This document shows positions 6,688-43,208 of a stretch of 64,000 nucleotides of DNA, piece after piece. The notes beneath the pieces are model-generated. The model worked only from the letters and a program-made list of their open reading frames with translations. It searched no databases and was not told the origin of the DNA. Position 1 is the first letter of the stretch, and each line of letters starts with the position of its first letter. The DNA is from an uncultured Verrucomicrobiales bacterium (GTDB lineage Bacteria > Verrucomicrobiota > Verrucomicrobiia > Limisphaerales > Palsa-1400). The position numbers and the translations under genes were made by a program. The stretch lies in the NCBI GenBank assembly GCA_903898185.1, contig CAIUEN010000364.1, positions 13,394 through 77,393 of the forward strand, in the 5' to 3' direction.

Positions 6688-6711
6688 GAACAGGCAAGAT
6701 GCCTGTTCTAC
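6688..6711. repeat. family-C palindrome (GAACAGGCAAGATGCCTGTTCTAC)
   Basis: It is a near-perfect palindrome. A related copy (GTAGAGCAGGCATCTTGCCTGCTC) lies at 45436-45459. Confidence 0.5.
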
Positions 6712-6715
6712 TTTG

Positions 6716-7645: not shown

Positions 7646-7659
7646 TTGTCATCGCTTCC

Positions 7660-12671: not shown

Positions 12672-13294
12672 TACCTCCTATGATAATCTTTCAAGAAATC
12701 CTGCGGCTTCATGTAAAACGGGTTATGCGCGATCTGCCCATGCACCACCATCATCGGATGAACTTTTAACACATCCAGGATGGTCGCCCCGCTGAACCGG
12801 TTGGCATCATACTGGCAAATGGCCGTCACCGGGTGTGTAACCATAACTTCATTAACCAAAGCTTCATATTCCATCAGGCGATCCGATCCGGGAATGCTCC
12901 TTAACGCCCAAGCCATTTCCCCGCTGACGCGGGCGTTCGGATACCCTTCATTTATTGCCTGTCCATAAAATTCCCGTAGCGTCTGCAACATGATTTCGGG
13001 AACAAACGCGCCGGACGAACAATAGGTGTTTGCAGCGTCGCCAATGGAAAAGCCGCCATTGCACGGGAGTCCCACGCCCATATTCTGCAACCATGCCCGA
13101 ACCTCTTCCGGCTTCATGGCGTCAGCAAAATACGCCACTTTCTCTTTGGCCCGCAGTCCGCTTTCCAGGAATTTCCCAATGATGGTACGCCGCTCAAAGT
13201 CATCGGAGTAGATCAGGCACATGTGGGTTCCGGCGGGGAAAGGTTTGGGCGTGAAACCCATCGGGGTCAGGTTGGTTGAATTGTTTGGGTGCAT
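12671..13294 (-). CDS. MEDS-domain protein (putative sensory partner of the downstream kinase)
   Basis: I trimmed the ORF 12671..13423 to the ATG at 13292-13294 (MHPNNS...). HMCLIYSDDFERRTIIGKFLESGL...KVAYFAD...ICQYD resembles the MEDS family. Its TAA stop (12671-12673) overlaps the kinase ATG (12669-12671) in a GGAGGTAATG context. Confidence 0.65.
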   Translation of the reverse strand: MHPNNSTNLTPMGFTPKPFPAGTHMCLIYSDDFERRTIIGKFLESGLRAKEKVAYFADAMKPEEVRAWLQNMGVGLPCNGGFSIGDAANTYCSSGAFVPEIMLQTLREFYGQAINEGYPNARVSGEMAWALRSIPGSDRLMEYEALVNEVMVTHPVTAICQYDANRFSGATILDVLKVHPMMVVHGQIAHNPFYMKPQDFLKDYHRR

Positions 13295-13631
13295 GATATT
13301 CAAGTGGCAGTTGGTGTGCTCGAAATCAGAGTTTGCAAAGGACCATGCGTGTCGGCAAAAACGGGCGTGCCGCCCATGATTTCCGAGGCGAAGCGGGCGA
13401 TGCCTTTTAAAGCTTCCATACAAAGAAGCATAATCCTGTCGGCGAATTTATCAACTGGCAAACCTCAGCAATTCTCATTTTGACTCTTTGCGTGACATTT
13501 TCTTGCGCAAAACTGCCCCAATCGTGCATAAATCTTAAGAAACACGCCGCAAATCGACACGCAAATCGACAAAAAGCGTCAAGATCGAGTCATAATAAGA
13601 ATTGCTGCAATTTGCATAATTAGAATTGATG

Positions 13632-14142: not shown

Positions 14143-14832
14143 ATGCGCTCACTTATGGCCGGAGAAAACACAAACCACAGTCCAATCGATTCTGAGTTGG
14201 TGGCGCAAGCAAAATCCGGCGATCTTGCTGCGTTTGAATCGCTCGTTTGTCGCCACGAGCGTCACGCCTATTCGCTTGCGCTGAGAATTGTGCGCCATGA
14301 GCACGATGCTCAAGACGCGACACAGCAAGGCTTTCTCAGTGCCGTGGAGCATCTGAAGGATTTTCGTGAGGATTCCGGTTTTGCCACATGGTTGATGCGT
14401 GTCATGACCAACGCCGCGCTCAAGATTCTGAGAAAACGGTTGGGGTTGAATGTCGTTTCGATTGAGGAACATGCTGAGCTTCAGGATGAATTCGACTCGG
14501 TTCCCCATCCCGATTACATTGCCGACTGGCGTGAATCCCCATCGGTTTTGGTCGAGCGCAATGACACCCTTGCCATTATTGAGACAGCCTTGGGGCAATT
14601 GGACGAAAACCATCGACTGGTCTTTCTTTTGCGCGACGTTGAGGGGCTTTCTGTTCTTGAAACCGCACAAACCCTGGGTATCAGCGAGAACAATGTGAAG
14701 GTTAGGTTGTTACGGAGCCGGTTGCGGTTGCGTGAAATGCTAACGGAGAAGTTCGGCGACCCTTCTCGTCAGGTCAAGCGTGATCCCAATCATGCGCATG
14801 CGAACTTTCCAGCGGATAGAAAGAAAGTGTAA
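14143..14832 (+). CDS. ECF-type RNA polymerase sigma factor (sigma-70 family, group 4)
   Basis: 229 aa. Region 2 reads AFESLVCRHERHAYSLALRIVRHEHDAQDATQQGFLSAVEHLKDF...FATWLMRVMTNAAL. Region 4 reads HRLVFLLRDVEGLSVLETAQTLGISENNVKVRLLRSR. The TAA stop at 14830-14832 lies inside the GTAAC terminus of repeat A2. Confidence 0.85.
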   Translation: MRSLMAGENTNHSPIDSELVAQAKSGDLAAFESLVCRHERHAYSLALRIVRHEHDAQDATQQGFLSAVEHLKDFREDSGFATWLMRVMTNAALKILRKRLGLNVVSIEEHAELQDEFDSVPHPDYIADWRESPSVLVERNDTLAIIETALGQLDENHRLVFLLRDVEGLSVLETAQTLGISENNVKVRLLRSRLRLREMLTEKFGDPSRQVKRDPNHAHANFPADRKKV

Positions 14833-15292: not shown

Positions 15293-17833
15293 ATGCAGTC
15301 AGCAACTGTTAACCAATCCTACCATATGCGAACTTTGAAAACGATCTGCATGGCTGCGGCCCTTGCTGTTCCAGTCTCTCTACCGGCGGCGGACTCGGTG
15401 CTGCTTGGGTGGAACAATCTCGGCATGCATTGCATGGACAGCGATTACTCGGTGTTCTCCATCCTGCCTCCGTATAACACAATCGAAGCTCAGTTGGTGG
15501 TGGGCGGCAAGCTGCTCAAAACCAACACCGGATATTCAGTCACCTACGAAGCCATCGCGGATCCAGACGGCTCAATCAATTCAACGTCGGCTGGCAAGGG
15601 AAATTTTTACTCTTTTACAGCGGCTCTGTACGGCGCTCTTGCGACGGACCATGGATTGGCCGGATGGGGGATGCCGGGGGCTGCAAATCAGCCGCAGTCA
15701 ATGCTTTTCGAAAATACAAATCACCCGGCCACCGGAGTGGCAATGAGAGTGGACTGGTTTCGCGCGGAAGGGATTCCGATTACTCCCTACGACAACGCCA
15801 TGAAAAAGAACTCCTATCCGATGATGCGGTTGGTAGCGCGCAATGCGGCCAAAGCGATCATTGCGACCAATGACATCGTTCTGCCGGTGTCCGATGAGAT
15901 GGATTGCCGGGCATGTCACGCGTCTGGTTCGCCTGTCGCCGCAAGACCGGCGGCAGGGTGGGTGAACGATGCAAATCCCGAGCGCGATTACCGTCTAAAC
16001 GTTTTACGCCTCCATGACGAGAAGGAGTTTTCGTTGCATTCGGCGGACTACTCGGCAGCGCTCGCGACGGCGGGGTTGAACCCGGAGGGGCTTTATGCCA
16101 ACGTAGCATCCGATGGCAGGCCAATTCTTTGCGCAGGGTGCCATGCATCCGAAGCTTTGGGGACGGCAAGCATTGGAAAAATCCCGTCCCTGACAGCATC
16201 CATTCATTCGTTGCATGCCGGTGTGATGGATCCGGTTCTTAACATGCCCATGGACAGCTCTGCAAACCGGGCCGCCTGTTATCGCTGCCATCCGGGCTCG
16301 ACCACCAAATGCTTGCGTGGCGCGATGGGCAGCGCTGTCGCCGCCGATGGCTCAATGGCCATGCAATGCCAAAGCTGCCATGGCAGCATGACGCAGGTGG
16401 GCGCGGCTAACCGGGTTGGCTGGTTCATGGAACCTAATTGCCAAAGCTGCCACACGGGCACCGCGAAACGCAACAATGGCCAGATTCGTTATACATCCGT
16501 ATTTGACGCGAGCGGCAATACCCGCCTCCCGGCAGACACGACATTCGCCACCACGCCAAACACTCCGGCTGCGGGAATCTCCCTTTATCGTTTTTCAGTT
16601 GGACACGGCGGTCTTCAATGCTCCGCCTGCCACGGTTCGACTCACGCCGAATTTCCAGCTTCGCATCGCAACGACAATGTTCGGAATATCGAACTGCAAG
16701 GGCATGCCGGAGTTTTATCAGAATGCGCCGTATGCCACACCACCGTGCCCAGCACCGTTAACGGCGGCCCCCATGGGATGCATCCTGTTGGACAGTCGTG
16801 GGTACGACAACACCACGATTCGGTTGAGAGTGCCGGCGCGGCAGCGTGTCAATCATGTCATGGCGTCGATTATCGTGGAACCGTTCTGTCACGCTCACAG
16901 GCGGACCGATCTCTCAGCGCTTTTGGGACGCAGACCTTCTTCCGCGGAGCCATCATCGGTTGCTACACCTGCCATTCCGGCCCGTCCAATGACGATGCGA
17001 ACAGCAGCCTGGCGCCTGTGGTTTCAAGCGTTTCCGCCAGCACTTGGACAGGTCATTCAGTGTCGTTTACATTGCCGGTCTCCGGCGCGAATGCAACGTT
17101 GCGAATCATCTCCCAGCCCGCACATGGCACTGCCGGTTTGAGCAATTCCACAGCCACCTATTTTCCAGATTCTGGGTTTGCTGGATCTGATTCGTTCACG
17201 TTTGCGGCATACGATGGATCAAAGAATTCGATACTGGCGACCGCCACAATCACGGTGACAACAAATCCCCCTGTGGCGCCCGTGATTACAAAGGCACCGG
17301 CTGGCGTGACGGTGTCTCCAGGCGCCACGGTTGTCTTCAGTGCAACCGCCACTGGCACAGCACCTTTGCGTTATCAATGGTTCAAGAATGGCGCTTCAAT
17401 TCCATCGGCGACCAACACAACATTGACGCTGACTGCCGTGACCGCCTCCAGCGCGGGAAACTACTCTGTTAGCGTCAGTAACGCCGCCGGATCGGTCTTG
17501 AGCGCGACTGCGACACTGACGGTGAAGACAACCCCAATTACTGTAAAACTGACAAGTCCCGCTGCGAACGCTTCCTATGCTGCTCCCGCGTCTGTGCGTC
17601 TGACGGCTTCCGCGTTGCCGGTTGCCAGTGTCGCCCAAGTTCAGTTTTATGATGCCGGGACATTACTGGGATCTGCGAGTACCACTCCATTCACAATCAC
17701 TGCAAATCTAAAAGCGGGCGTTCATGTCTTGACCGCGAGGGCGATCAATGGAAGCGGCGTTACATACACCTCGCCGTCAGTTCGTGTCACGGTGACGCAG
17801 CCAGCAGTGGTTTCGCGAGCGGCTCGAAACTAA
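15293..17833 (+). CDS. secreted multiheme (nine CxxCH) c-type cytochrome with three C-terminal Ig-like/beta-sandwich modules
   Basis: 846 aa with a signal peptide (MRTLKTICMAAALAVPVSLPA). An alternative start is the ATG at 15326. The nine heme motifs are CRACH, CAGCH, CYRCH, CQSCH, CQSCH, CSACH, CAVCH, CQSCH and CYTCH (about nt 15905-16975). The C-terminus carries an I-set-like module (...TGTAPLRYQWFKNGASIPSATNTTLTLTAVTASSAGNYSVSVSNAAGS...) flanked by two further Ig/cadherin-like modules. Confidence 0.85.
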   Translation: MQSATVNQSYHMRTLKTICMAAALAVPVSLPAADSVLLGWNNLGMHCMDSDYSVFSILPPYNTIEAQLVVGGKLLKTNTGYSVTYEAIADPDGSINSTSAGKGNFYSFTAALYGALATDHGLAGWGMPGAANQPQSMLFENTNHPATGVAMRVDWFRAEGIPITPYDNAMKKNSYPMMRLVARNAAKAIIATNDIVLPVSDEMDCRACHASGSPVAARPAAGWVNDANPERDYRLNVLRLHDEKEFSLHSADYSAALATAGLNPEGLYANVASDGRPILCAGCHASEALGTASIGKIPSLTASIHSLHAGVMDPVLNMPMDSSANRAACYRCHPGSTTKCLRGAMGSAVAADGSMAMQCQSCHGSMTQVGAANRVGWFMEPNCQSCHTGTAKRNNGQIRYTSVFDASGNTRLPADTTFATTPNTPAAGISLYRFSVGHGGLQCSACHGSTHAEFPASHRNDNVRNIELQGHAGVLSECAVCHTTVPSTVNGGPHGMHPVGQSWVRQHHDSVESAGAAACQSCHGVDYRGTVLSRSQADRSLSAFGTQTFFRGAIIGCYTCHSGPSNDDANSSLAPVVSSVSASTWTGHSVSFTLPVSGANATLRIISQPAHGTAGLSNSTATYFPDSGFAGSDSFTFAAYDGSKNSILATATITVTTNPPVAPVITKAPAGVTVSPGATVVFSATATGTAPLRYQWFKNGASIPSATNTTLTLTAVTASSAGNYSVSVSNAAGSVLSATATLTVKTTPITVKLTSPAANASYAAPASVRLTASALPVASVAQVQFYDAGTLLGSASTTPFTITANLKAGVHVLTARAINGSGVTYTSPSVRVTVTQPAVVSRAARN

Positions 17834-21362: not shown

Positions 21363-22462
21363 ACGTCACCATTGACAAACAGACACGCCACTACCGCACC
21401 GTCACCTTTGACGCCGCGACCAATTCTGTTCGCCTGATCGAGCAGCGTCTCCTTCCGCACGAATTCAAAATCATCAGCACGGCGAATTACCGGGAAACAG
21501 CCCAAGCGATCAAAGACATGGTAGTGCGCGGAGCTGGCGCGATCGGCGCAACGGCGGCGTATGGACTGGCACAGGGCGCGCGGGCTTTTCGAGGCGGCAA
21601 CCTTGTCCGGTTCAAGAGCCATGTCGAGGCAGTCTTCTTAACGCTCAAGAGCGCCCGTCCAACAGCGGTCGATCCCGTCAATGCCATGAACGGCGTCCTC
21701 CGGATTATGGCCAGCGGTGAGAATGTTGAGGAACAGCAGGCGCTGGCCTTGGCTGCGTCCGAGGATTTCGCCAATAACGATGTCCGGCACTGCGCCGAAA
21801 TTGGCCAGCACGGGGTTAAACTCATCCACGACGGGATGCGCATCCTCACCCATTGCAACGCAGGCTGGCTGGCGTTTGTCGATATCGGTTCTGCCACCGC
21901 GCCAATCTACGCCGCCCAAAAAGTCGGCGTTCAATTTCATGTCTTCTGCGATGAAACCCGTCCGCGCTCCCAAGGCGCCACGCTGACCGCCTGGGAATTG
22001 GCGCAACAGGGCGTCTCGCATCAAATCATCGCCGACAACGCCGCTGGCCATCTCATGCAACGCGGTGAGATCGACATGGTCATCGTTGGCAGCGACCGCA
22101 CGCTTGGACGCACCGGCGATGTCGCCAACAAAATCGGCACCTACACCAAGGCGGTGCTCGCCAAACGGCACGGAATTCCATTCTACGTCGCAATCCCTCT
22201 ATCAACCATAGACTGGGAGATGGAATCCGGAGCGAAGATCCCGATTGAGGAACGCGATCAAAACGAGGTTCTGGGAGCTTGGGGAATGGTCAAAACCCGT
22301 AGCGTTACCCATTTCGCCTATTCCCGCGTCGCCAATCCGACCAGTGGCGCCCGCAATCCCGGCTTCGATGTCACCCCGCCCGACCTCATCACCGGCATTA
22401 TCACTCCCGCTGGCATTTTCAAGCCAAAGGAACTCTGGAAGAATCGAAAAACGCTGGGGTAG
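21359..22462 (+). CDS. mtnA: S-methyl-5-thioribose-1-phosphate isomerase MtnA (eIF-2B alpha/beta/delta family)
   Basis: 367 aa with LLPHEFKIISTANYRETAQAIKDMVVRGAGAIGATAAYGLA, ...THCNAG..., ...ETRP..QGA.LTAWEL... and ...GSDR...GD.ANKIGTY... motifs. Confidence 0.85.
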   Translation: MNVTIDKQTRHYRTVTFDAATNSVRLIEQRLLPHEFKIISTANYRETAQAIKDMVVRGAGAIGATAAYGLAQGARAFRGGNLVRFKSHVEAVFLTLKSARPTAVDPVNAMNGVLRIMASGENVEEQQALALAASEDFANNDVRHCAEIGQHGVKLIHDGMRILTHCNAGWLAFVDIGSATAPIYAAQKVGVQFHVFCDETRPRSQGATLTAWELAQQGVSHQIIADNAAGHLMQRGEIDMVIVGSDRTLGRTGDVANKIGTYTKAVLAKRHGIPFYVAIPLSTIDWEMESGAKIPIEERDQNEVLGAWGMVKTRSVTHFAYSRVANPTSGARNPGFDVTPPDLITGIITPAGIFKPKELWKNRKTLG

Positions 22463-22467
22463 TTTGA

Positions 22468-24609
22468 CTACCAAGAATTCTTTTCATCCAGGCAATCGCG
22501 AACCATGCCGGCCAGTTTCTCGGGGGAATAAGGCTTCTGGATGAACTTGAACGACTCGCTTGAATGGGGTTCGTTTTCGGCGATGACTGTTGTGCTCATG
22601 CCGCTGGTGAGGATGACCTTGAGCTTCGGCTTCATGGATCGAAGCATCGTTGCAAGCTGTCTCCCGCTCATCCCATCGGGCATGCTGATGTCGCTGAGAA
22701 GGAGTTTGATTTGAACCTGATCTTGAGACCAGATGTTCAGCGCCTCGGCGCTGTTGGATGCTTCCAGCACGCGATAGCCGTATTGTTCCAAAACCCGACG
22801 CAACAATCTGCGCACGGGAGGTTCATCTTCCACCAGCAAAACGGTCTCATTTCCGTGCAATCCTTTGGCAGGGCCGACTGATGCGGTAGGTTCCAAGTTC
22901 TTACTGGCCGGCAGAATGACGTTGAATGTCGATCCAACACCCACCTTGCTTGATACTTCGATCCAACCTTGGAGTTCCTTGACAATACCATAGACAGTGG
23001 CCAGCCCCAAGCCACTCCCCTTTCCGGCCTCCTTGGTGGTGAAAAATGGCTCAAAAATCCTTCGCTGAAGTTGCTCATCCATTCCGCAACCGGTATCGGT
23101 CACGCTAAGGCAAACAAAGCGTCCAACAGATGCCTCCGGGTTTTGCGCAACCTTATTGGACTCGACATCAATCAACCCTGTACAAATGGTCAACTGCCCA
23201 CTGTGACTCATCGCGTCGCGAGCATTGAGGGCCAAGTTAAGAATAATTTGCTCAACTTCCAGCGCGTCAGCATAAATCAAGGGAGGTTCCTCCGCAAAAC
23301 GACATTCCAGTCGGATATGCTCGCCTATCATCGGAGGCAGCATCGCCTGCAATTGCAGAAGCATGTCGTTCAGATTGAGAATTTTCAACTGGGTCATCTG
23401 CTTGCGTCCAAAGGTCAGCAACTGGCGGGTGAAACTGGCTCCTCGCTGGGAGGCGCTCATGACCTGCGTAAGCGAATCATGAATTCCCGTATCCAACCCC
23501 TCGGTTTCCATGATCAGCCCGACATATCCCTGCACAATGGAAAGGATATTGTTGAAATGATGCGCCACGCCCGATGCCAACTGCCCAACAGCCTCGAGTT
23601 TTTGCGAGTGCCGTAACTGGTTTTCCAAGCTGATCCGCTCCGATATGTCGTGAATGATGATCATCGCGCATGAATCGGAGCCCAAGTTGAAAAACTCGAT
23701 TGATACCAAGGCATTTCGGATCGTGCCTGTTTTTGTTCTAAACCGGCATTCCAGATCCCGCACGGGCAGTCTGCGTCCCAACAACTGAGTTACCTCCTGC
23801 CATTGCGCTTCATCCTGCCAGATGCCCAGTTCGAAGCTGGTATGTTGAATCACTTCGTCGCGAACAAATCCCATCATCTTCAAAAATGCGGCGTTGACAT
23901 CAATATGACGGTGATCTCTGACAGTCTGGATGGCCATTGGCAGAGGGCTCGCCGCAAATGCCTTTGAGAACCGCTCCTCCGAATGCCGCAACGCGGTTTC
24001 AATGCGCGTTTTGTCCGCAATTTCCAAGGTCAATTGCGCGTTGGACAATTGCAGTTCCAATGTTCGCGTATTGACCATCGCGTCCAAGTTGTCCAACCGA
24101 TGCTGAACCTGGCGGGTAAGACGCCATTTTTCGCTCAGTGAATGCGCCAACTGCACGACTTCGACAGTATCAAACGGCTTCTTGAGAATAACGAGGTTTT
24201 GAGTTCTACCCAAAACCCTGAAAATGTCTTCCCAAGCGTAGTCTGAGTAAGCGGTGCAAATGACGATTTGAATTTGGGGATCAACCTTCCAAAGCTCCGT
24301 GATGGTTTGCACGCCGTCCCAGCCTGGGGGCATCCGCACATCCACAAAGGCGACTGCGTAGTGCTGATTCTCCGCCGCAGACCGCTGAACCAATGCCAGG
24401 GCTTCTTGGCCTTGGTAAGCTGAATCAACCTCAAACAAGCAGCCCGGAGCAGGGGTGACGGCTTCTCCAAAAAGAGATGCCTCCACACGCTCAAGAGCGC
24501 GATGGGCGCTCACATCAAGACAGAGAATTTTGCGAAAATCGCCATGAATCGAGGTATTGTCGTCCACGATCAAGAGACGATGATTGCTGGCAACGGACGC
24601 TTGGTTCAT
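22468..24609 (-). CDS. hybrid histidine kinase: receiver - PAS - HisKA - HATPase_c - receiver
   Basis: 713 aa. The N-terminal REC reads LLIVDDNTSIH...FVDVRMPPGWDG...KKPF. A PAS module follows, then an H-box (ASGVAHHFNNIL), an ATPase (DTGCGM...GSGLGL) and a C-terminal REC (VLLVEDEPPVR...LLLSDISMPDGMSG...KPY). Its ATG overlaps the upstream kinase stop (ATGA at 24606-24609). Confidence 0.9.
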   Translation of the reverse strand: MNQASVASNHRLLIVDDNTSIHGDFRKILCLDVSAHRALERVEASLFGEAVTPAPGCLFEVDSAYQGQEALALVQRSAAENQHYAVAFVDVRMPPGWDGVQTITELWKVDPQIQIVICTAYSDYAWEDIFRVLGRTQNLVILKKPFDTVEVVQLAHSLSEKWRLTRQVQHRLDNLDAMVNTRTLELQLSNAQLTLEIADKTRIETALRHSEERFSKAFAASPLPMAIQTVRDHRHIDVNAAFLKMMGFVRDEVIQHTSFELGIWQDEAQWQEVTQLLGRRLPVRDLECRFRTKTGTIRNALVSIEFFNLGSDSCAMIIIHDISERISLENQLRHSQKLEAVGQLASGVAHHFNNILSIVQGYVGLIMETEGLDTGIHDSLTQVMSASQRGASFTRQLLTFGRKQMTQLKILNLNDMLLQLQAMLPPMIGEHIRLECRFAEEPPLIYADALEVEQIILNLALNARDAMSHSGQLTICTGLIDVESNKVAQNPEASVGRFVCLSVTDTGCGMDEQLQRRIFEPFFTTKEAGKGSGLGLATVYGIVKELQGWIEVSSKVGVGSTFNVILPASKNLEPTASVGPAKGLHGNETVLLVEDEPPVRRLLRRVLEQYGYRVLEASNSAEALNIWSQDQVQIKLLLSDISMPDGMSGRQLATMLRSMKPKLKVILTSGMSTTVIAENEPHSSESFKFIQKPYSPEKLAGMVRDCLDEKNSW

Positions 24610-26171
24610 GCTTCAGTTCTTTTCTTATCGACAGGCAGTTCCAACACAAAAACAGCTCCCAAACCCTGTCCATCACTTTGAACGCTCAAAGAGCCTCCCA
24701 TTTCTTTGGCAGCTAATGCGCAACTATGCAAGCCAAACCCATGTCCATTCGTTTTGGTGGTGAACCCGTGGGCAAAAATGATCTGGAGGTTTTCCGGTGG
24801 AATCCCGATGCCCGTATCTCGAACCGTGATTTCCACCCGGTCAGATCCGCTGGGACGAACGCCAACGGTAATGCGCTTTTCCTTACCGTTCTCCTGCTCG
24901 ATGGCCTGCTTTGCATTGCGCAAAAGGTTGATCAGGATTTGCATAACCCGATGTTTGTCCACCAGCACCGGAGGCGACTGCTCAAACTGCTCAACCATTT
25001 CGATTCCATATTTGCCAAAAGTGCCGGAATTCATTTCAATAGCATCCCTTGCCACACTCACCGGATCCAGCGATTCGAGAAGTCCGGACACTTTCGCGTA
25101 GCTTTGCTGCGCCGCGACGATTTGTTTGATATGATTGATGGCCCGCCCCAGTGAATCGACCTCCTTGGCTTGGTCAGTCTGCTCACGTCGGAGGCGCGCG
25201 GCCAACTCGTAAAGCAGATTGGGAATAAGTTTGCCCTTGGAATCCGTGGTAATATAGCCCCCGAGGTTCTCTTTATGCTCTTGGAGAACCGTCACCACTT
25301 TTTCCAATGTCGATACTTTGGAGTTACGAAGCAACTCGCGGACGACGCAGACCGAAACATTGGCGCTATTGAGCACATTGCCCACGTTGTGCAAGACTCC
25401 CGTTGCAATTTCCGCCATGCCGGCCCGGCGCGAGGCATCGACCAGTTCCTTCTGCGATGACCGCAAGTCATTGTCCTTGGACTGAATCTGAGTTAACATC
25501 TGGTTGAAGGCGTCGGTCAATTTCCCAACTTCGTCGCGCCCCACCTTTTCAGCGCGCACGCTGTAATCGTTCTTCTCGGCAATCAGTTGCGCTGTCCCTG
25601 CCAGCTTCAGAATGGGTTCGGAGATGAATTGTTGAAACCGCATTGAAAGGAAAAAAGCCAGCAGCAAGGATGCCACGAGAACGGCGGGCAGAATGCCAGC
25701 ATACAGGCTGAGCAAGCCGAAAAGCTCACTATTGTAATCCGACCACAGTTGAACTGTCCCCAATCGCTTGCCGTCCAAATTAACCGGGCAGGAAAAGATT
25801 CGGTAAGAACCAACCGACCTCATGCCATCAGGAAAACGGTTGGTAACTTCAACCAAGCTTTGGTCAAAACCGAACTGGGCGAGACGCGAACCATCCAAGG
25901 CCAAAACATAGGCGCTGGCAATGTTCGGTTTCGCCTTCATCGATCCAAGCACCTCACGCGCAGTATCCTTGTCGTTATAGGTCAACGCGGCGGAGCTGTT
26001 GTCGGCAACAATGCGCGTCAGAGCTTCCAGATCACGCGCGAAGGTCCGCTGGAACGAGAGCGTCTGGAAAACGAACAAGACCGCGCATGCCATAACCAGA
26101 ACAGTGCCACAGGTTATAAGAATGGTACAAGTCACCTTGTGCCGCAGTGGCAGATTTTGCAGAAGTCGCAT
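24606..26171 (-). CDS. membrane sensor histidine kinase (TM - about 150-aa periplasmic domain - TM - HAMP - DHp - HATPase_c)
   Basis: I trimmed the ORF to the ATG at 26169-26171 (MRLLQNLPLRHKV...), 1 nt after the DUF4154 gene stop. The TMs are VTCTILITCGTVLVMACAVLFVF and LSLYAGILPAVLVASLLLAFFL. HAMP is at ...VGKLTDAFNQMLTQI. The H-box is GVLHNVGNVLNS and the ATPase is DTGIGI...GHGFGLH. Confidence 0.85.
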   Translation of the reverse strand: MRLLQNLPLRHKVTCTILITCGTVLVMACAVLFVFQTLSFQRTFARDLEALTRIVADNSSAALTYNDKDTAREVLGSMKAKPNIASAYVLALDGSRLAQFGFDQSLVEVTNRFPDGMRSVGSYRIFSCPVNLDGKRLGTVQLWSDYNSELFGLLSLYAGILPAVLVASLLLAFFLSMRFQQFISEPILKLAGTAQLIAEKNDYSVRAEKVGRDEVGKLTDAFNQMLTQIQSKDNDLRSSQKELVDASRRAGMAEIATGVLHNVGNVLNSANVSVCVVRELLRNSKVSTLEKVVTVLQEHKENLGGYITTDSKGKLIPNLLYELAARLRREQTDQAKEVDSLGRAINHIKQIVAAQQSYAKVSGLLESLDPVSVARDAIEMNSGTFGKYGIEMVEQFEQSPPVLVDKHRVMQILINLLRNAKQAIEQENGKEKRITVGVRPSGSDRVEITVRDTGIGIPPENLQIIFAHGFTTKTNGHGFGLHSCALAAKEMGGSLSVQSDGQGLGAVFVLELPVDKKRTEA

Positions 26172-26172
26172 C

Positions 26173-26922
26173 TCAGTTTTCTTTTTTTGCGTCCTCCACC
26201 TTGATGGCTTTGGGCAGACGCAAGAGTTTCGAACTAATCGCCAATCCGACGCGTTGAGCCCGGCTTGGATTGACCTCAAACCTGACATTCTTGTTCAACA
26301 CCACGAAGTTGATCATCCCTCCCTGCTGCGCAAAACCGTCGATTTCGCTCACCGTCAGAATCGGCGCTGATCCAACTCTCTCAAGTATCTCGCCAACCCG
26401 GCCCTTTAGACTGTGACTGACGAACAGGACGTGGCAACAATTAGGACTGTCTTTTTCTCCAAGGAGCTTAACCTCCAGTTTTCGGCCTTTGACCAATTCA
26501 CCGTTGACGGTCTGATCGAGCAGCGAGCCGAACGGATTCTCCCCAATGATGCCGATTGTGATTGGCGTTAAAGCGTCGGCAAAAGCTTTTTCCGGCCATT
26601 CCACGAATTTCGTAAAATTGAAAAGAAAAACTGCCTTGATCTGGTATTCCACTTCCGCCGCCGCAGGTTGCGATTGAGCTGTGACATCAGCCAGGCAGAA
26701 ATAACCCAATAGTATGAGCGCCAACACGCGTCGAGCCAAACCTGCTGAAAGATCATTCTGCCCGCTGTGCCTCTCCAAAATGGGCGCTCTAAATTCACCC
26801 CCTTGTGGGGCGTACCTCTGGTCTGCCCGTTCCCGGAGCCTCAGGGTCCGCGGACGCGGCGCTCGGGCCGCGTGAGTGCCCAAGCTCTCCGCCTTCCGAT
26901 TCATGGTTTCTGAAGATAGCAT
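26173..26922 (-). CDS. periplasmic DUF4154 / YfiR-like protein
   Basis: YQIKAVFLFNFTKFVEWP...ITIGIIGENPFG...CHVLFVS...ILTVSEIDGFAQQGGMINFVVLNKNVRFEVNPSRAQRVGLAISSKLLRL matches the DUF4154 pattern as I remember it. There is a signal-like segment (RRVLALILLGYFCLADVTAQS). The N-terminal boundary is uncertain. Confidence 0.8.
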   Translation of the reverse strand: MLSSETMNRKAESLGTHAARAPRPRTLRLRERADQRYAPQGGEFRAPILERHSGQNDLSAGLARRVLALILLGYFCLADVTAQSQPAAAEVEYQIKAVFLFNFTKFVEWPEKAFADALTPITIGIIGENPFGSLLDQTVNGELVKGRKLEVKLLGEKDSPNCCHVLFVSHSLKGRVGEILERVGSAPILTVSEIDGFAQQGGMINFVVLNKNVRFEVNPSRAQRVGLAISSKLLRLPKAIKVEDAKKEN

Positions 26923-26937
26923 ATTTGTTGGAGCTCC

Positions 26938-29040
26938 TCAGAACCGATAGGTTAGCTTCACTCTAAAGTTGCGCCCATCCTGTTGAACCGCATCCAGCGG
27001 ACTAAAATCCGCCGAGACTGGATCACGGTAGGTGCAATCAAACACGTTGTAAATGCTGGCCGAGATCTCCAAATTCTTGACCAACTCGCGGCTAAAAAGC
27101 GTGGCGTTGGCGATCCAGAAAGCGCCGGTTTCGGTGCGTTCGACTGTCCATCGTTTGCTCGTCCCCTGCAATTCCAACCCGGCGGAGATTTTGTCCAGGT
27201 AGAGCGGGATGATCAGGTTCAACTTGGCCATGTGCTTTGGAGAATTGCTCAGGAACTGACCCGAATCGGAGTCACGGCTCTCCTGAAACGTGTAACTCGC
27301 CTTTCCGCGCCACCCATGGCCCCAATGTCCGTCCAATTCCATTTCCGCGCCGCGCGATTGCACCGAATTAAGGTTGGCAGCATAAAGAAGATTATCGCTC
27401 GGATCCCTTTGGGAATCGATCAGTCCGTCAATTTCATTCAGAAACAGCGAAGACTGAAGACGCGCATGGGAGTTAAGTTCCTGCTCGAAAACCAGTTCGT
27501 AGGAATGAACCTTCTCACTCTTCAGTTGGAGATTCGGCTTGTAACCGGGCATCGCGTAATACATCTCACTCGCGTTTGGCGCCCGAAAGGCTTCCCCATA
27601 GAGGAACTTGAAGGTGCTTTTGGTCACCGGTTGATAGACCATCGACATACGGGGATTAAACGTGTCGCCAAACGTGCTGAAGTAGTCATAGCGAAGTCCG
27701 CCGTTGACCGCGAAACCATGAAAAATCTGATACTCGTCCTGGACATATACTCCAACGGTATCGTTCCTGTTGCGTGTGTCGAAATAGTCAGCTCGTGGCA
27801 AAATATCATAGTTCCTCTGAGCCAGGTAAAAATCGTGAATTACTTCCGAACCCGCCGTAAGCACATTATCATCGAACAATGGCTTGCTTGCGAGCATTTC
27901 AGCGCCCATCAGTTCCGCTTCGCTGAAATCGCGATTCTTTATGACTTGCCCAGGATAAAGCGGGTCAGCGAAATCCACGATCGATGGCAGCATGTTGTGG
28001 GCGTCAAATTGATAGTGATCAAAATAGACGCGGGCCGTCACCGCGAGATCGTTCTCAAATCCATGCGAATACTTGAGATCCACATACCCACGTTCGTCCA
28101 TGGCAAACGTGCCCGGCTGACCAAACACCGTGCCAAACGGAGCGTTTGGCAAATCTTTGCGACGATGGACAATGGCCCCTTGCAGAGTGAAGTCGCGGTA
28201 GGACAGGGTCGAGATCGCGCTCTTGACGGTATTACCATCCAATCCTCGCGCGATGCCCTGTTGAACGGAGCGATATTCGGGATAAAACAACTCCTTGTGG
28301 CCATCGCTGTCGAGATAGGTTCCGGACATGGCGAGTTCGACCCCATTGGTAAAAACTCTCCCGTAGCTGGCGCGCCCGGTATAGGTATCGTAACTTGCGA
28401 CGGCGCTGGAGACTTCAGTCCCGTTGAGATCTCGTCCTTTGCGCGTGATTACATTGATCACAGCAAAGAACGCATTGTTTCCGTAAAGCGACGATCCAGG
28501 CCCGCGAATAACCTCGACGCGCTCAATCATATCGACGTCCACCAATCCTTCGGTGCCGCTGAATGCCTGGTCATAAATCGGCTCATTCACCCGATGACCG
28601 TCAACCATGAGCAGTATCCTGTCGCCATAGTCTCCAGGTCGATTGATACCCCTGGCGCCAATATAGCTGTAGTAGCGATCTGAAGTTACGTTAAACCCCC
28701 GCACTCCTCGAAGCACGTCAGCCAGAGTGCGATAGCCGTATTGCTTGATGTCAGAGGATGTGACGATGCTTACTGATGAAGGTGCCTCGGTTACCTTTTG
28801 TTCGTGTTTAGACGCGCCATAGACTGTGGGAATCTCCACATCCATCAGATCTTCCACGCTCATTTTCTTGAGAGCCGCCACGCCTTCCGGGGCATTGGTT
28901 TGTGCGAGCGCCAATTGTGGCGATGCACAGATGACTGCCAGAAACAAAAAAAGAAGCCTGCCGCGTTTGCATCCAGAGCTATGCAACCACAACATTCCCT
29001 TCGATGGAGAACTCGTCAGCAGTTTTTCAGCAATTCTCAT
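26938..29040 (-). CDS. TonB-dependent receptor-like outer-membrane beta-barrel
   Basis: The plug domain reads LKKMSVEDLMDVEIPTVYGASKHEQKVTEAPSSVSIVTSSDI...ADVLRGVRGF. A long barrel follows, ending in the aromatic terminus ...NFRVKLTYRF. The track N-terminus (29041-29211) translates a repeat. Plausible starts are ATG 29038-29040 (MRIAEK...) or ATG 28993-28995 (MLWLHSSGCKRGRLLFLFLAVICASPQLALA). Confidence 0.9.
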   Translation of the reverse strand: MRIAEKLLTSSPSKGMLWLHSSGCKRGRLLFLFLAVICASPQLALAQTNAPEGVAALKKMSVEDLMDVEIPTVYGASKHEQKVTEAPSSVSIVTSSDIKQYGYRTLADVLRGVRGFNVTSDRYYSYIGARGINRPGDYGDRILLMVDGHRVNEPIYDQAFSGTEGLVDVDMIERVEVIRGPGSSLYGNNAFFAVINVITRKGRDLNGTEVSSAVASYDTYTGRASYGRVFTNGVELAMSGTYLDSDGHKELFYPEYRSVQQGIARGLDGNTVKSAISTLSYRDFTLQGAIVHRRKDLPNAPFGTVFGQPGTFAMDERGYVDLKYSHGFENDLAVTARVYFDHYQFDAHNMLPSIVDFADPLYPGQVIKNRDFSEAELMGAEMLASKPLFDDNVLTAGSEVIHDFYLAQRNYDILPRADYFDTRNRNDTVGVYVQDEYQIFHGFAVNGGLRYDYFSTFGDTFNPRMSMVYQPVTKSTFKFLYGEAFRAPNASEMYYAMPGYKPNLQLKSEKVHSYELVFEQELNSHARLQSSLFLNEIDGLIDSQRDPSDNLLYAANLNSVQSRGAEMELDGHWGHGWRGKASYTFQESRDSDSGQFLSNSPKHMAKLNLIIPLYLDKISAGLELQGTSKRWTVERTETGAFWIANATLFSRELVKNLEISASIYNVFDCTYRDPVSADFSPLDAVQQDGRNFRVKLTYRF

Positions 29041-29113
29041 TTTGGGGTAATACGGAGGTAAAACGGAGGTAAAACTCTGATCTCTGCCTGCGCGCGAGGT
29101 TTCCGCCCTCCAG

Positions 29114-29174
29114 CGGAGCCAGAGGCACCGCAACCGGCAGACCAGAGGTCTACCCCACATAATGAGAATTGCTG
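29114..29174 (-). repeat. family-B repeat arm (CGGAGCCAGAGGCACCGCAACCGGCAGACCAGAGGTCTACCCCACATAATGAGAATTGCTG)
   Basis: It aligns to 51409-51467 and 43161-43208 and contains the palindromic core GGCAGACC-N-GGTCTRCC. Confidence 0.7.
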
Positions 29175-29236
29175 GCAGTTTTTTCATTGCGCAACCTGTT
29201 TCCATATCCAAGAGTAATCTGAAGTGGCTCTTTCAA

Positions 29237-29414
29237 TTGGGGCAGACCTCTGGTCTGCCAGCACCTCGTTATCGAGGCGCAGCGATTAGTTGTGCTGTAA
29301 CTATTAGGCATCCTGCCTGTGCCCCTCTTTCCGCCGAGCGTCGCGAGACGCTAATTTCTCCTTCTGACGTGAACAGTTGCGTTGTGCTGACTGTTCCTGG
29401 AGCCTCTGGCTCCG
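29237..29414 (+). repeat. family-B repeat arm interrupted by MITE A5
   Basis: TTGGGGCAGACCTCTGGTCTGCCAGCACCTCGTTATCGAGG...GATTAGTTGTGCT [A5] GTTGTGCTGACTGTTCCTGGAGCCTCTGGCTCCG is colinear with the uninterrupted copy at 51303-51385. Confidence 0.75.
29297..29380 (+). mobile_element. family-A MITE copy A5, nested inside a family-B repeat, with a perfect 8-bp target-site duplication
   Basis: GTTGTGCT occurs at 29289-29296 and again at 29381-29388, directly flanking GTAACTATT...GAACAGTTGC. The same B sequence at 51353-51368 carries GTTGTGCT once. Confidence 0.85.
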
Positions 29415-29483
29415 TAAATTCCAACCGACTTAAGGAGACCCTGCTTCCGTATTGGTTATCTTGTGTGAGAGCGTATTCAAAAT

Positions 29484-30755
29484 TCACAAAGATTTCAAGT
29501 AGATACTCTTCAGGTAGGTAGCCTCAGGGAAAGTCGATGGGTGATCGGGCGGGTGACCCGTGGTCTCGATTTCGGTGAACCCACGACCTGAACGCTCTGC
29601 AGCCAGACGGACAGCCTCGAAGAACTCGGGCGCGGAGACGTGGGCGGAGCAGGAAGCCGCGACCAGCACGCCTCCTTTTCGCAGCGACTTTATCGCGCTC
29701 GCCACGAGCGTCCCATACGCCCGAATGGCCCCTGCCCGCTCAGCTTCCCGCTTGGCCAGAGACGGCGGATCGAGGATTATCAAGTCAAAGAGCTGCGTCG
29801 TATTTCTTTCAAGCCATGCGAACACGTCTCCCTGCAATGTGACATGCCGACACCGGGCAATTTGTGGGATTGCCTGGTTGAGAGCAAAATTTCTCCGCGC
29901 GGACTCAATTGCATGCGCGCTGATATCGAGGTCGGTCACCGCCCTTGCGCCACCCCGTGCCGCGTACAGAGAAAACCCGCCCGAGTAGCTGAATGCATTG
30001 AGCACGTCACGCCCTTGCGATAGCAATTCCACGCGGCGGCGGTTTTCGCGTTGATCCAGGAAAAAACCGGTCTTTTGTCCGCGAACAACATCGGCTTCAA
30101 ACTGGATGCCGTTCTCCTGAAAAATCACAGGCCCATCCAGTTCCTTGCCAAAAATCACCTGTCCATCGCGAACGCCAAACTCCTTCGCCTTCTCTTGAAT
30201 GTTGCGGCTCAACCGCAGGACGATTCCATCGGGATGGAAGACGCTTTGGAAGAGCGATGTGAACTGTTCGATCCGTGGCAGCCACGCTGCTGTGTACAAT
30301 TTCAGGACGAGAACCCCCTTGTAGCGGTCGAGCGCCAAGCCTGGCCAGCCGTCACTCTCGCCGCAAATCCAACGCCAGCCATCAGTTTGGCTGTCAAACA
30401 GGGTGCGCCGCCGCGCCATCGTTTCTTCCAGGCGCATTTGCCACCACGCGTCGTCCAGTGTCAAAGGTTTCCCGACATGAAGCATCCGAACGCGCAACGG
30501 CGAATCCGGATCAAACAATCCGATTCCAAGAAAACGGTCCGCGCGGTCGTAAATCACCGCCAACTCTCCCAGATTACCCTCGCGATTCTGATCGCGAACG
30601 CTGGAGGCAAACAACCACGGATGCCCGGAACGGATGATGCTCTCGGCAGCGGCGGTTACTCGCAGACGGAGCCGTGGAGGATGCGCTACAGTCGCATCCT
30701 TGTGGGGCAGACCTAGGGTGTTGAATTGATCGGTTTTTTGCTCTGGAAAGGTCAT
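29484..30755 (-). CDS. rlmI: class I SAM-dependent rRNA (cytosine-C5) methyltransferase, RlmI-like (PUA + MTase)
   Basis: 423 aa with ...[14 protein letters not shown]..., ...[10 protein letters not shown]..., ...[16 protein letters not shown]... and ...IILDPPS.... The exact start is uncertain. Confidence 0.75.
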
Positions 30756-35993: not shown

Positions 35994-37214
35994 ATGAATC
36001 CCAGTCCGTCGAATCCTTCCATCACTATACGATCAACCGGTCAAAACGCGGTCACTCGCCATTCCCGGCGCTGGCTTCCGTATGCCGGAGCCGTTATGCT
36101 GCTCAGCCTCATTGTGGCAGGGCTTTGGCCCAAGCCGATCCCAGTCGAAACAACCCACGCCATGCAGGGCACTTTGCGCGCCACTGTTAACGAAGAGGGT
36201 AAGACTCGGATCAAACAGCGATACGTCGTCTCCGCGCCGGTGGCCGGCCAATTACGCCGCATTCCATTCAAAGCGGGCGCCGAGATGCGCGCCAATGAAA
36301 CTGTGGTGGCAGTAATCGACCCGATCTCACCTGCCCTGCTCGATGCCCGCGCCCGCTCTCTGGCCGAGGCCCGCCGCGACACGGCATCCGCCAACCTGGA
36401 AAAGGCCCGCGCCGCGAGCGCCTACGCATTGAGCGAACTCCACCGGTTCAAAAAACTGCGCGCCGACAAGGCGATCAGCGATCAGGAGTTCGATGCCGGT
36501 CAATGGCGCCTATCCGCCGCCGCCAAAGACGAGTCCGCCGCGCAAAGCGCATTGCGCCAGGCTGAAGCCGAATTGGCCGAATTTACACCCGGCAGCGTCC
36601 CGGATCAGCGGCCTCCGACGGAAGTCAAAGCCCCGGTCAACGGACGGATTCTCCGCATTTTCGAACCCAGCGCCCGCGTTGTCACAACCGGCGCGCCGCT
36701 GGTGGAAATCGGCGATCCAACCGATCTCGAAGTGGTGATCGAAGTCCTCTCCCGCGATGGCGCGGCCATTGCGCCCGGAGCCAAGGTCAGCCTCGAACAG
36801 TGGGGCGGCGGCGACCCGATTAATGCGCAAGTACGCCTGGTGGAACCGGCGGCGTTCACCAAAGTATCGGCGCTGGGCGTCGAGGAACAAAGAGTCAACA
36901 TCATCGCCGACCTTATCATGCCTCCAGCACAACATGCTGGCTTGGGCGACAGCTTCCGGGTCGAAGCGCGAATTACGGTATGGGAATCAGATCGAACGCT
37001 CAAAGTCCCCTCCGGCGCGCTCTTTCGGCGAGGCAACAAATGGGCGGCATTCGTCGTGCAAAACGGGCGCGCGGAATTGCGCCAGGTCCAAGCCGGTCGC
37101 TCAAGCGGTCCGGAGACCCAAGTGCTGGACGGTCTCAAAGAAGGCGATGAACTGATCCTCTACCCAGGGGATCGCGTGCAGGAAGCGCAACGCGTTAAAC
37201 CGGTGGTGTTTTGA
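35994..37214 (+). CDS. HlyD-family periplasmic adaptor (membrane fusion protein)
   Basis: 406 aa with an N-terminal TM (AVMLLSLIVAGLW), a coiled-coil hairpin, and lipoyl and beta-barrel segments (...APVNGRILRIFEPSARVV..GAPLVEIGD...). Confidence 0.85.
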   Translation: MNPSPSNPSITIRSTGQNAVTRHSRRWLPYAGAVMLLSLIVAGLWPKPIPVETTHAMQGTLRATVNEEGKTRIKQRYVVSAPVAGQLRRIPFKAGAEMRANETVVAVIDPISPALLDARARSLAEARRDTASANLEKARAASAYALSELHRFKKLRADKAISDQEFDAGQWRLSAAAKDESAAQSALRQAEAELAEFTPGSVPDQRPPTEVKAPVNGRILRIFEPSARVVTTGAPLVEIGDPTDLEVVIEVLSRDGAAIAPGAKVSLEQWGGGDPINAQVRLVEPAAFTKVSALGVEEQRVNIIADLIMPPAQHAGLGDSFRVEARITVWESDRTLKVPSGALFRRGNKWAAFVVQNGRAELRQVQAGRSSGPETQVLDGLKEGDELILYPGDRVQEAQRVKPVVF

Positions 37215-37906
37215 CAGTCGATGTGGCCGCCAACGGAGTCGAGGCTATCAAAGCGCTCGAAATGTTCCCTTACGGTCTGGTGCTGATGGACGTGCAGATG
37301 CCGGAGATGGATGGGTTCGAGGCCACCAGAGCAATCCGCAATCCGCAATCATGCGTTCTCAACCACCAAGTAACCATAGTTGCCATGACCGCTCACGCCA
37401 TGCAAGGCGACCGCGAGAAATGCGTGCAGGCAGGCATGGACGATTACCTCACCAAACCAATCGAACGATCTGCTTTGATTGCGGTTTTGCAAAAGTGGCT
37501 CAAACCAAAAGGCGAACAGGAACATGCGGTGGCCAGCGAGCCGGAAGAAAGAGTCGCCATCTCCAATGATGAAAAGGAACTCGTAGTCTTTGACCGTGCG
37601 GCATTCATGAATCGAGTGGGGGATGACAAGGACTTGGATCGGACGATTCTTGATGGCTTCTTGGAGGATCTGCCCAGCCAAATCACGCAGTTGAAGGCCC
37701 ATCTGGCGGTCGGCGATGCCCACCTTGTCGAACAGCAAGCTCACAAGATCAAAGGTGCCAGCGCCACGGTGGGAGGCGAAGCTTTGCGTGCCGTCGCTTG
37801 GGCGATGGAGCAAGTCGGCAAAGCTGGAGATCTGGATGCGGCCAGAGCCCGCGTAACCGATCTGGACGAGCAATTCAATGCGCTCAAGAAAGCGATGAAT
37901 CGTTGA
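37211..37906 (+). CDS. receiver (N-terminally truncated) - HPt phosphotransfer protein
   Basis: The only possible starts are TTG 37211 or GTG 37223. The frame is closed by a TAA at 37196-37198. The REC begins at alpha1/beta2 (ANGVEAIKALEMFPYGLVLMDVQMPEMDG...VAMTAHA...YLTKP), so about 22-25 residues are missing, including the beta1 acidic pair. The C-terminal HPt carries HKIKGASATVGGEAL. Confidence 0.6.
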   Translation: MTVDVAANGVEAIKALEMFPYGLVLMDVQMPEMDGFEATRAIRNPQSCVLNHQVTIVAMTAHAMQGDREKCVQAGMDDYLTKPIERSALIAVLQKWLKPKGEQEHAVASEPEERVAISNDEKELVVFDRAAFMNRVGDDKDLDRTILDGFLEDLPSQITQLKAHLAVGDAHLVEQQAHKIKGASATVGGEALRAVAWAMEQVGKAGDLDAARARVTDLDEQFNALKKAMNR

Positions 37907-39980: not shown

Positions 39981-40100
39981 TTGTGGGGCAGACCTCTGGT
40001 CTGCCGGTTGAATGGGTCTCTGACCCATCGAATCCGCATCTCCCCAGATGCCAATCCACGGAGTCAGAGACTCCGTCAACTGTCAGGTCAGAGACCTTCC
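39981..40100. repeat. family-B core palindrome (GGGGCAGACCTCTGGTCTGCC, 39985-40005) plus further short palindromes
   Basis: The B core is followed by GGGTCTCTGACCC, CGGAGTCAGAGACTCCG and GGTCAGAGACC palindromes. The track ORF 39923.. translates this stretch as a spurious N-terminus. Confidence 0.55.
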
Positions 40101-43160: not shown

Positions 43161-43208
43161 CGGAGCCAGAGGCTCCTGGAACCGGCAGACCGGAGGTCTG
43201 CCCCACAA
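43161..43208 (-). repeat. family-B repeat arm
   Basis: CGGAGCCAGAGGCTCCTGGAACCGGCAGACCGGAGGTCTGCCCCACAAGG aligns to 29114-29160 and 51409-51455. Confidence 0.6.

Follow-up and report, generated by a model that had tools for sequence, protein, structure and literature searches.

Four genes on the minus strand of a 64,000-nucleotide stretch of DNA from an uncultured Verrucomicrobiales bacterium (contig CAIUEN010000364.1; the whole stretch is referred to below as the window) encode, in order of transcription, a TonB-dependent receptor (TBDR), a DUF4154/YfiR-like protein, a CHASE8-HAMP membrane histidine kinase and a soluble REC-PAS-kinase-REC hybrid kinase. The gene order recurs across phyla, so the arrangement is not a matter of chance, and we conclude that the four genes form a real operon. 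By its profile scores the operon classifies as a divergent member of the NCBIfam TOL_0244/TOL_0243/kinase trio. Starting from gene content, homology, intact catalytic motifs and the conserved linkage of each pair of genes, all of which are directly observed, we think it somewhat probable that the products work as a modular sensor spanning the envelope, with a two-kinase phosphorelay downstream of it.

Coordinates throughout are those of the window. Domain calls are from Pfam, family membership is judged by NCBIfam curated cut-offs and folds are assigned by comparing an AF2 model with structures in the PDB. Gene calling done independently on the source contig (ena:ERZ27313295:k141_558622, of which the window is the reverse) yields the identical four genes, and a second sample carries the identical four-gene arrangement (Table 1). 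The first-pass annotation, made by a model from the letters and open reading frames (ORFs) of this DNA, had described the same minus-strand set with the same domains, which the ORFs, the independent gene call and Pfam all bear out. The 1-nt gap at 26172 and the 4-nt ATGA overlap at 24606-24609 that it reported are both exact.

Table 1. Positions of the operon genes and of further features in the window (REP, repetitive extragenic palindrome; aa, amino acids)
Feature	Position	Strand	Details
TonB-dependent receptor (TBDR)	26938-29040	-	700 aa from ATG at 29040; longest ORF to 29211
Probable non-coding spacer, TBDR stop to likely DUF4154 start	26740-26937	-	one REP-like copy, core 26814-26827
DUF4154/YfiR-like protein	26173-26739	-	188 aa from TTG at 26739; longest ORF 26173-26922 = 249 aa
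CHASE8-HAMP membrane histidine kinase	24606-26171	-	521 aa; longest ORF to 26288
Soluble REC-PAS-kinase-REC hybrid kinase	22468-24609	-	713 aa
REP-like core	26814-26827	-	
REP-like core	29136-29149	+	
REP-like core	29246-29259	-	
REP-like core	39992-40005	-	
REP-like core	43184-43197	+	
REP-like core	51312-51325	-	
REP-like core	51544-51557	+	
REC-HPt ORF	37211-37906	+	231 aa; TTG start overlaps stop of membrane-fusion-protein gene 35994-37214
PASx3-HATPase-REC hybrid kinase	9495-12671	-	1059 aa
MEDS-domain protein	12674-13423	-	
ECF-type sigma factor	14143-14829	+	
Protein beside glmS	15293-17833	+	846 aa

The second gene of the operon begins, in its longest ORF, with an extra Arg/Pro-rich N-terminus that is absent from relatives; these are 180-200 aa long, and the DUF4154 match (149.7 bits) starts only at residue 93 of the 249 residues. 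The TTG at 26739, by comparison, opens a clean signal peptide, MARRVLALILLGYFCLADVTA followed by Q, and is probably the true start. Given the length of the relatives and this signal peptide, the spacer between the TBDR and DUF4154 genes is probably 198 nt rather than 15 nt; the 15-nt gap (26923-26937) of the first-pass annotation holds for the longest ORF and not for the likely TTG start. Two-domain DUF4154 proteins of 340-378 aa also exist. The window protein passes, over its full length, the cut-off of NF053591, the 'TOL_0243 family YfiR-like periplasmic protein' (160.8 bits against 125, E 2.2e-47), and does not reach that of the true YfiR equivalog NF053586 (27.5 bits against 85). An AF2 model of it (29 homologues, pLDDT 90.9) has YfiR structures as all of its 15 best PDB matches, with TM-scores of 0.61-0.79 at 16-19% identity; at the level of sequence the subfamily profile matches YfiR with an E of 2.5e-10. 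The fold of YfiR is half of a periplasmic binding protein (PMC4655355), and the next-best folds for our model are single-lobe (single-domain) and Trp-binding substrate-binding proteins. The closest of these is a single-domain substrate-binding protein of Rhodothermus marinus (PDB 5Z6V/8WGL), which, unlike YfiR, the DUF4154 profile does not detect at the sequence level; the genes for this single-lobe protein are reported near membrane chemoreceptor genes (PMC10805632). The C-terminal surface of YfiR contacts YfiB and is predicted to contact YfiN as well (PMC4655355). Equivalents of its residues E163, N165 and R171 (motif RFExN...R.G, retained in the window protein) are kept in the subfamily profile, as is that of C110.

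The membrane kinase consists of a first transmembrane helix (residues 12-35), a periplasmic CHASE8 domain (36-149), a second transmembrane helix (150-175), HAMP (183-230), DHp and HATPase regions. A periplasmic domain had been foreseen by the first-pass annotation, and it exists, at about 115 aa rather than the ~150 aa then given. Residues 13-248, which span the TM-CHASE8-TM-HAMP half, match the DgcN/YfiN family NF007423 with an E of 7.6e-25, and the output half is DHp plus HATPase_c, without GGDEF. The YfiR/YfiN analogy drawn from the sequence at the outset thus proved apt on both sides, in the homology of the kinase N-terminus to DgcN/YfiN and in the YfiR matches of the DUF4154 model. Pfam recognizes CHASE8, HAMP and HATPase_c in the kinase and gives no HisKA match. 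The DHp region is atypical: H261 lies in the H-box GVLHNVGNVLNS (nt 25365-25400), and further on a long insert separates the DHp helices. Among 67 homologues, H261, N415, D452/G454/G456 and G476/G478/G480 are nearly invariant, and the N, G1 and G2 boxes are intact. Against NF053592 ('sensor histidine kinase, YfiR-like protein-associated') the protein scores 181.7 bits over profile positions 1-222 of 223, with a cut-off of 194; at 12 bits short we class it, on this profile, as a borderline and divergent member.

The first gene encodes a complete receptor. Pfam finds Plug (73.7 bits) and TonB_dep_Rec_b-barrel (153.6 bits), and the C-terminus reads ...TYRF; the term 'TBDR-like barrel' used previously was right about the receptor barrel and too cautious otherwise, since plug, barrel and C-terminal Phe are all complete. 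The signal peptide ends in ALA followed by Q, and an alternative ATG at 28995 begins MLWLHSS. The closest PDB sequences, CirA, FepA/PfeA and BtuB, match in the plug region only, and Pfam detects no STN signalling domain. For the TOL_0244 family NF053590 the window receptor scores 151.3 bits against a cut-off of 645, and its other best NCBIfam matches are also far below cut-off. The receptor belongs instead with a second clade of DUF4154-linked TBDRs, with which it shares 39-49% identity (loci L007, L017, L019, L033, L042, L053, L054, L063, L072, L079, L082 and L085 of the set described below), against about 20% with the TOL_0244 majority. Just before the plug, at nt 28807-28872, lies the N-terminal motif LKKMSVEDLMDVEIPTVYGASK. 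Its consensus, L[KT]xLSLEELMxxEV(T/Y)S(V/A)SK, is kept in all DUF4154-linked TBDRs of both clades despite their overall identity of about 20%, and the same motif is found in nearby paralogous TBDRs too. A conserved strand-like segment (VEIPTVYGASK / EVTSVSK) lies ahead of the plug, and the N-terminal motif may represent a helix followed by a TonB box, or else a docking element.

We scanned one genome per GTDB species with the DUF4154 alignment, which gave at least 576 loci, and analysed the best 80. In these, ORFs were called and searched with the window proteins; 68 had enough sequence upstream for the TBDR position to be evaluated. Three neighbourhoods of close DUF4154 homologues, viewed first, all have the window gene order, and the best 80 loci cover at least nine phyla: Verrucomicrobiota, Acidobacteriota, Gemmatimonadota, Planctomycetota, Nitrospirota, Bacteroidota, Myxococcota/Desulfobacterota, Gammaproteobacteria and Binatia. 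In 79 of the 80, the gene immediately after DUF4154 encodes a CHASE8-HAMP protein. Of the 68 evaluable loci, 59 have the TBDR gene immediately before DUF4154 and on its strand, five more have it adjoining divergently, and in four no TBDR is detected. Gene order in relatives, whose lack of conservation would have refuted the first-pass annotation by its own terms, is therefore strongly conserved (79/80 for CHASE8 and 64/68 for the TBDR). The end of the TBDR gene runs into the start of the DUF4154 gene by exactly 13 nt in about 17 loci from several phyla (L010, L013, L016, L032, L034, L041, L047, L050, L052, L053, L061, L068, L080, L081, L084 and others), which suggests a conserved translational coupling that has been lost in the window. 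The module is sometimes tandem-duplicated as TBDR-DUF4154-TBDR-DUF4154 (L020, L074, L082; P0361-P0365 and similar). Plug-less Phenol_MetA_deg barrels occupy the TBDR position in L005/L006 (6782-8011; Ca. Angelobacter) and in L035 (8717-9805; a metagenome-assembled genome (MAG) of Nitrospiria). More broadly, a search with DUF4154 matches 22,366 clusters, defined at 50% identity, with E<=1e-3; the number is 912 when the threshold is tightened to E<=1e-30.

Pfam assigns HATPase_c to 61 of 67 CHASE8 partners, HisKA to 55, an added receiver to 27, MCP to four, Hpt to four and GGDEF/EAL to one. The gene that follows the partner carries REC in 45 of 64 cases and HATPase_c (that is, a kinase) in 25 of 64. 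In about 20 of the 80 loci (e.g. L003) the kinase gene is followed by one for a free-standing receiver of ~148 aa, and a second kinase often comes next. The sensors of 61 out of 66 relatives reach E<=5e-57, about the NF053592 cut-off, and 37 of 62 relatives' TBDRs, the window's not among them, are of the TOL_0244 type (E<=1e-190, about the NF053590 cut-off). Because relatives' sensors and TBDRs score at about these cut-offs, the sampled loci are the trio that NCBI curators have already defined (NF053590/NF053591/NF053592). The window operon has the trio's gene order and its three roles, and its DUF4154 protein passes the cut-off; it differs in its TBDR, which belongs to another clade and scores far below cut-off, in its kinase, 12 bits short and with an atypical DHp, and in its relay, which is a fused REC-PAS-kinase-REC protein where many trio loci have a stand-alone receiver. 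Two expectations of the first-pass annotation fall away here. The kinase version had been put forward as the new element; the trio has a name in NCBIfam, where the third member is a histidine kinase, so the claim to novelty fails, and the kinase counts above point the same way. A gamma-proteobacterial TBDR/YfiR-like/c-di-GMP arrangement had been suggested as the known form, and it is not dominant in this subfamily, where a single partner out of 67 carries GGDEF/EAL. Our search of the full-text literature, with subscription-only papers outside its coverage, found no functional description of a barrel/YfiR-like/kinase module. Pseudomonas PA3268-PA3271 was considered as a possible characterized TBDR/YfiR-like/kinase locus; PA3271 came up mainly in connection with the CrbS/R two-component system, no DUF4154 link was found, and we dropped the lead.

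The fourth gene adds a second kinase. Its domains are, in order, REC, PAS, HisKA, HATPase_c and REC. The N-terminal receiver (residues 1-175) has a long insert and its acceptor Asp in AFVDVRMP (nt 24328-24351), the H-box GVAHHFNNIL is at nt 23542-23571, the N, G1 and G2 boxes are intact, and the C-terminal receiver has its Asp in LLLSDISMP (nt 22678-22704). The core matches the histidine kinase of PDB 5idj, a close relative of CckA (entry 5idm), at an E of 2e-45, while the 1000-bit cut-off of the NCBIfam CckA equivalog is not reached in the window (378 bits for the hybrid, and 289). We accordingly describe the core as CckA-like by sequence and do not place the protein in the CckA family. As the first-pass annotation had said, Pfam finds no DNA-binding, enzymatic output or Hpt domain in the four proteins; neither an HPt nor an output domain turned up in the orthologous four-gene loci. 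Small ORFs that follow the hybrid in L007, L079 and L085 were considered as candidate outputs, have no Pfam families and are probably not genes.

The atypical DHp occurs in exactly five of the 80 loci (L007, L011, L053, L079 and L085), and the long-insert type of receiver in the same five, a co-occurrence that is confounded by ancestry, four of the five being Verrucomicrobiota. All four genes recur together in L007 (Pedosphaera), L079 (Limisphaerales) and L085 (Binatia), and L053 has long-insert hybrids on both sides of the trio. In L011 (12525-15262) the components are unfused: the CHASE8 kinase is followed by a Tll0287-like sensor kinase with the atypical DHp and by a stand-alone 200-aa long-insert receiver. 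The reverse test started from the hybrid kinase, whose family counts 4027 matches at E<=1e-80, and looked at the neighbourhoods of its orthologues. The closest of these, L090 (72% identity), has no TBDR, DUF4154 or CHASE8 kinase adjoining. L091 (60%; hybrid at 6074-8233) likewise lacks the other three genes next to it and lies near an IF-2B/RsfS/NadD block of the window type (10270-12700). In L092 (51%) the hybrid comes after DUF4154 and an atypical-DHp CHASE8 kinase, with no barrel, and in L093 (also 51%) it comes after a cytoplasmic PAS kinase with the atypical core (E 3e-96). A kinase core of the window type stands directly upstream of hybrid orthologues in L007, L079, L085, L053, L092 and L093, with differing sensor domains; in the first five of these the orthologue is full-length and adjoins a CHASE8 kinase. 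Since the two parts also occur separately, the window operon joins two modules: an input module of barrel, DUF4154 and CHASE8, and a transmission module of atypical-DHp kinase and receiver-gated hybrid. The trio may be a recent insertion beside a pre-existing hybrid, or it may have been lost in the L091 relative.

YfiBNR is the textbook example of a periplasmic repressor that shuttles between the inner and outer membranes, and in every case known to us its partner is a lipoprotein and its output c-di-GMP. Like YfiBNR (TpbB/AwsXRO/HmsCDE; Pseudomonas, E. coli, Yersinia), the window system sets a YfiR-fold gene beside a TM-CHASE8-TM-HAMP gene and adds an outer-membrane component. Unlike it, the output is a histidine kinase rather than the GGDEF diguanylate cyclase of YfiN, the outer-membrane partner is a TBDR of the 22-strand type rather than the OmpA/Pal-like lipoprotein YfiB, and the order is barrel, DUF4154, sensor rather than yfiR-yfiN-yfiB. 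No gene for an OmpA/Pal-like YfiB lipoprotein was found in or beside the operon. Judged by these comparisons, the system appears YfiRN-like at the DUF4154-CHASE8 step, yet it is not a YfiBNR member, as it has no YfiB and no GGDEF and fails the YfiR equivalog cut-off. With TonB-dependent transducers (FecA/FecR/FecI, FpvA) it shares a TBDR that is genetically coupled to a signalling protein of the cytoplasmic membrane and may report ligand occupancy at the outer membrane to the cytoplasm. It lacks both an STN domain and an adjacent anti-sigma/ECF sigma pair, and so is not a transducer of the FecA type; the proposed relay is instead from a soluble YfiR-like protein to a kinase. Control of a membrane kinase by a periplasmic protein or an imported ligand has parallels in LuxP-LuxQ, TorT-TorS, ChvE-VirA and the SusC/D hybrid loci of Bacteroides, and in the last of these the TBDR imports what the periplasmic sensor domain detects. 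The window system differs in that DUF4154 is a single alpha/beta lobe rather than a two-lobe binding protein, and in that the sensor is CHASE8.

We propose that the secreted YfiR-like protein would bind the CHASE8 domain of the kinase, as YfiR does YfiN, and set its kinase/phosphatase balance. This step is suggested by the YfiR/YfiN homology, by the linkage in 79 of 80 loci and by the correlation of pairwise-identity matrices (r 0.74 for DUF4154-CHASE8 and 0.47 for DUF4154-TBDR, both confounded by shared ancestry). The TBDR would most likely supply the cue by importing a compound into the periplasm, and the compound would alter how the DUF4154 protein, with its half-periplasmic-binding-protein fold, engages CHASE8. 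The membrane kinase would then autophosphorylate on H261 of its atypical DHp and pass the phosphate to the N-terminal receiver of the hybrid, a transfer to which the ATGA overlap, the 5/5 co-occurrence and the arrangements in L092 and L093 point. Once phosphorylated, this receiver would gate the CckA-like core, with phosphate moving to the hybrid's own C-terminal receiver and from there to an unlinked HPt protein or response regulator. The candidate for this last step in the window is the REC-HPt ORF (Table 1), the only HPt found in its 64 kb, 8 kb from the operon and on the opposite strand. Its Hpt domain is intact (HKIKGASATVG), and its receiver lacks the first ~23 profile positions, with beta1 and the acidic pair; the ORF may be a hybrid-kinase remnant, or the missing phosphorelay step for the operon.

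At the barrel, the alternative to import is sequestration of the kind known for YfiB: the TBDR would capture DUF4154 at the outer membrane, through the N-terminal helix-strand motif or through the plug when loaded with ligand or energised by TonB, and capture would free the CHASE8 kinase from repression, making the system a sigma-independent TonB-dependent transducer. We rate this as rather unlikely. The residues that correspond to the YfiR partner surface are kept in the subfamily, TBDR and DUF4154 genes adjoin in 64 of 68 loci, many with the 13-nt overlap, the N-terminal motif has persisted in two otherwise divergent clades, and DUF4154 clusters weakly by TBDR clade (9 of 13 nearest neighbours, 2.6 expected), all of which speaks for a physical partnership. 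However, the motif is also present in the nearby paralogous TBDRs, there is no STN domain, in L005 and L035 the TBDR gives way to plug-less barrels, and a barrel of any kind is missing from L092. DUF4154 stays 45-50% identical between loci with very different barrels; such exchangeability of the barrel is easier to reconcile with 'any import channel' than with a fixed interface between two proteins. This, together with a fold that is half of a periplasmic binding protein, leads us to favour ligand import with periplasmic sensing over sequestration at the barrel. The barrel could also be left out of the signalling path altogether, with DUF4154 and the CHASE8 kinase sensing the state of the envelope or periplasm alone, as YfiR and YfiN can, and the TBDR merely co-regulated, perhaps as a target of the pathway. 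The absence of a TBDR beside DUF4154 in L092 and in four of 68 loci would agree with this, as would the tighter linkage of DUF4154 to CHASE8 than to the TBDR and the 198-nt, REP-bearing spacer that parts the TBDR from the other three window genes. Yet about 95% of the evaluable loci, from at least nine phyla, have some outer-membrane barrel adjoining, and the reading frames usually overlap or nearly abut; the NCBIfam curators built the three families as a set; and the replacement of the TBDR by other barrel types argues for selection on an outer-membrane channel as such. A sensor that works independently of the barrel strikes us as improbable.

A further possibility concerns the hybrid kinase, which might belong to a different pathway and merely lie next to the trio. 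The two closest orthologues lack the other three genes, one of them in the same neighbourhood, and the family is very large. Against this stand the 4-nt overlap between the two kinase genes, the occurrence of the atypical DHp and of the long-insert receiver in exactly the same five of the 80 loci, and the presence of the same kinase core ahead of hybrid orthologues in six loci; mere juxtaposition is, in our estimate, very unlikely. Returning to the import-and-relay account, several observations weigh against it. The orthologues in L090 and L091 indicate that the hybrid can work without barrel, DUF4154 and CHASE8 input, and L092 that the kinase-hybrid pair and DUF4154 occur without a barrel. 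Shared ancestry confounds both the identity-matrix correlations and the 5/5 co-occurrence, and the spacer with its REP-like element weakens the tight TBDR/DUF4154 coupling in this particular operon. Equivalents of YfiR C71 and of C145 and C152, which form a disulfide in YfiR, are missing from the subfamily profile, so the redox/stability mechanism of YfiR is not transferable to it. Finally, no riboswitch or leader RNA upstream of the TBDR, nor any other clue to a ligand, appeared with Rfam at the gathering threshold or at E<=1.

The operon lies among housekeeping genes. On one side are glmS, a nadD-like gene and rsfS, with a gene of the IF-2B/MtnA type converging on the hybrid stop; on the other are a gene for an RlmI-like methyltransferase, crcB and an mqnC-like gene. 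The window GlmS is 81-83% identical to proteins of Verrucomicrobiae and of Verrucomicrobiota MAGs, which places the host in the Verrucomicrobiota and not among the gamma-proteobacteria; around glmS in these relatives the local gene order differs, which says nothing on the presence of the operon at this site. Rfam reports no family anywhere in the window at its gathering threshold, and a promoter/terminator scan of 22000-29700 gave no excess over shuffled sequence. The REP-like element of the spacer belongs to a dispersed family of ~50-60 nt with two hairpins, GGAGCC-AGA-GGCTCC and GGCAGACC-AGA-GGTCTGCC, followed by CCACAA. Its 14-mer core, GGCAGACCAGAGGT, has seven copies in the window where 0.25 are expected; besides the one in the TBDR/DUF4154 spacer, an inverted pair lies upstream of the TBDR, and the element may affect differential mRNA stability within the operon. 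Elsewhere the window holds a second signalling cluster, in which the MEDS-domain gene lies immediately upstream of that for the PASx3-HATPase-REC hybrid. The only gene found for a sigma factor of the ECF (extracytoplasmic function) type is near this cluster, ~7.6 kb beyond the stop of the operon's own hybrid gene and unlinked to the operon. The 846-aa protein encoded beside glmS has weak multihaem cytochrome c7/c3 matches and several bacterial Ig-like domains.

The trio is curated in databases and yet experimentally unstudied, and the window contributes a divergent member of this recognized module rather than a new architecture. What remains of interest is the module as a whole, in which a DUF4154 subfamily that is sister to YfiR is almost always tied to an outer-membrane barrel and a histidine kinase, and the pairing of the atypical-DHp kinase with the long-insert receiver, a candidate cognate pair for a very abundant Verrucomicrobial family of hybrid kinases. 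We tentatively raise the possibility that barrel, YfiR-like protein and CHASE8 make up a widespread, sigma-factor-free TonB-dependent route across the envelope, in which the YfiR-fold adaptor would relay ligand state or import to histidine-kinase cascades, with Verrucomicrobia using a dedicated relay from an atypical-DHp kinase to a CckA-like hybrid. If the barrel is indeed the input, outer-membrane receptors would have a second link to gene regulation in addition to that through FecA and anti-sigma factors, and many uncharacterized TBDRs of soil and freshwater phyla could be read as sensors.

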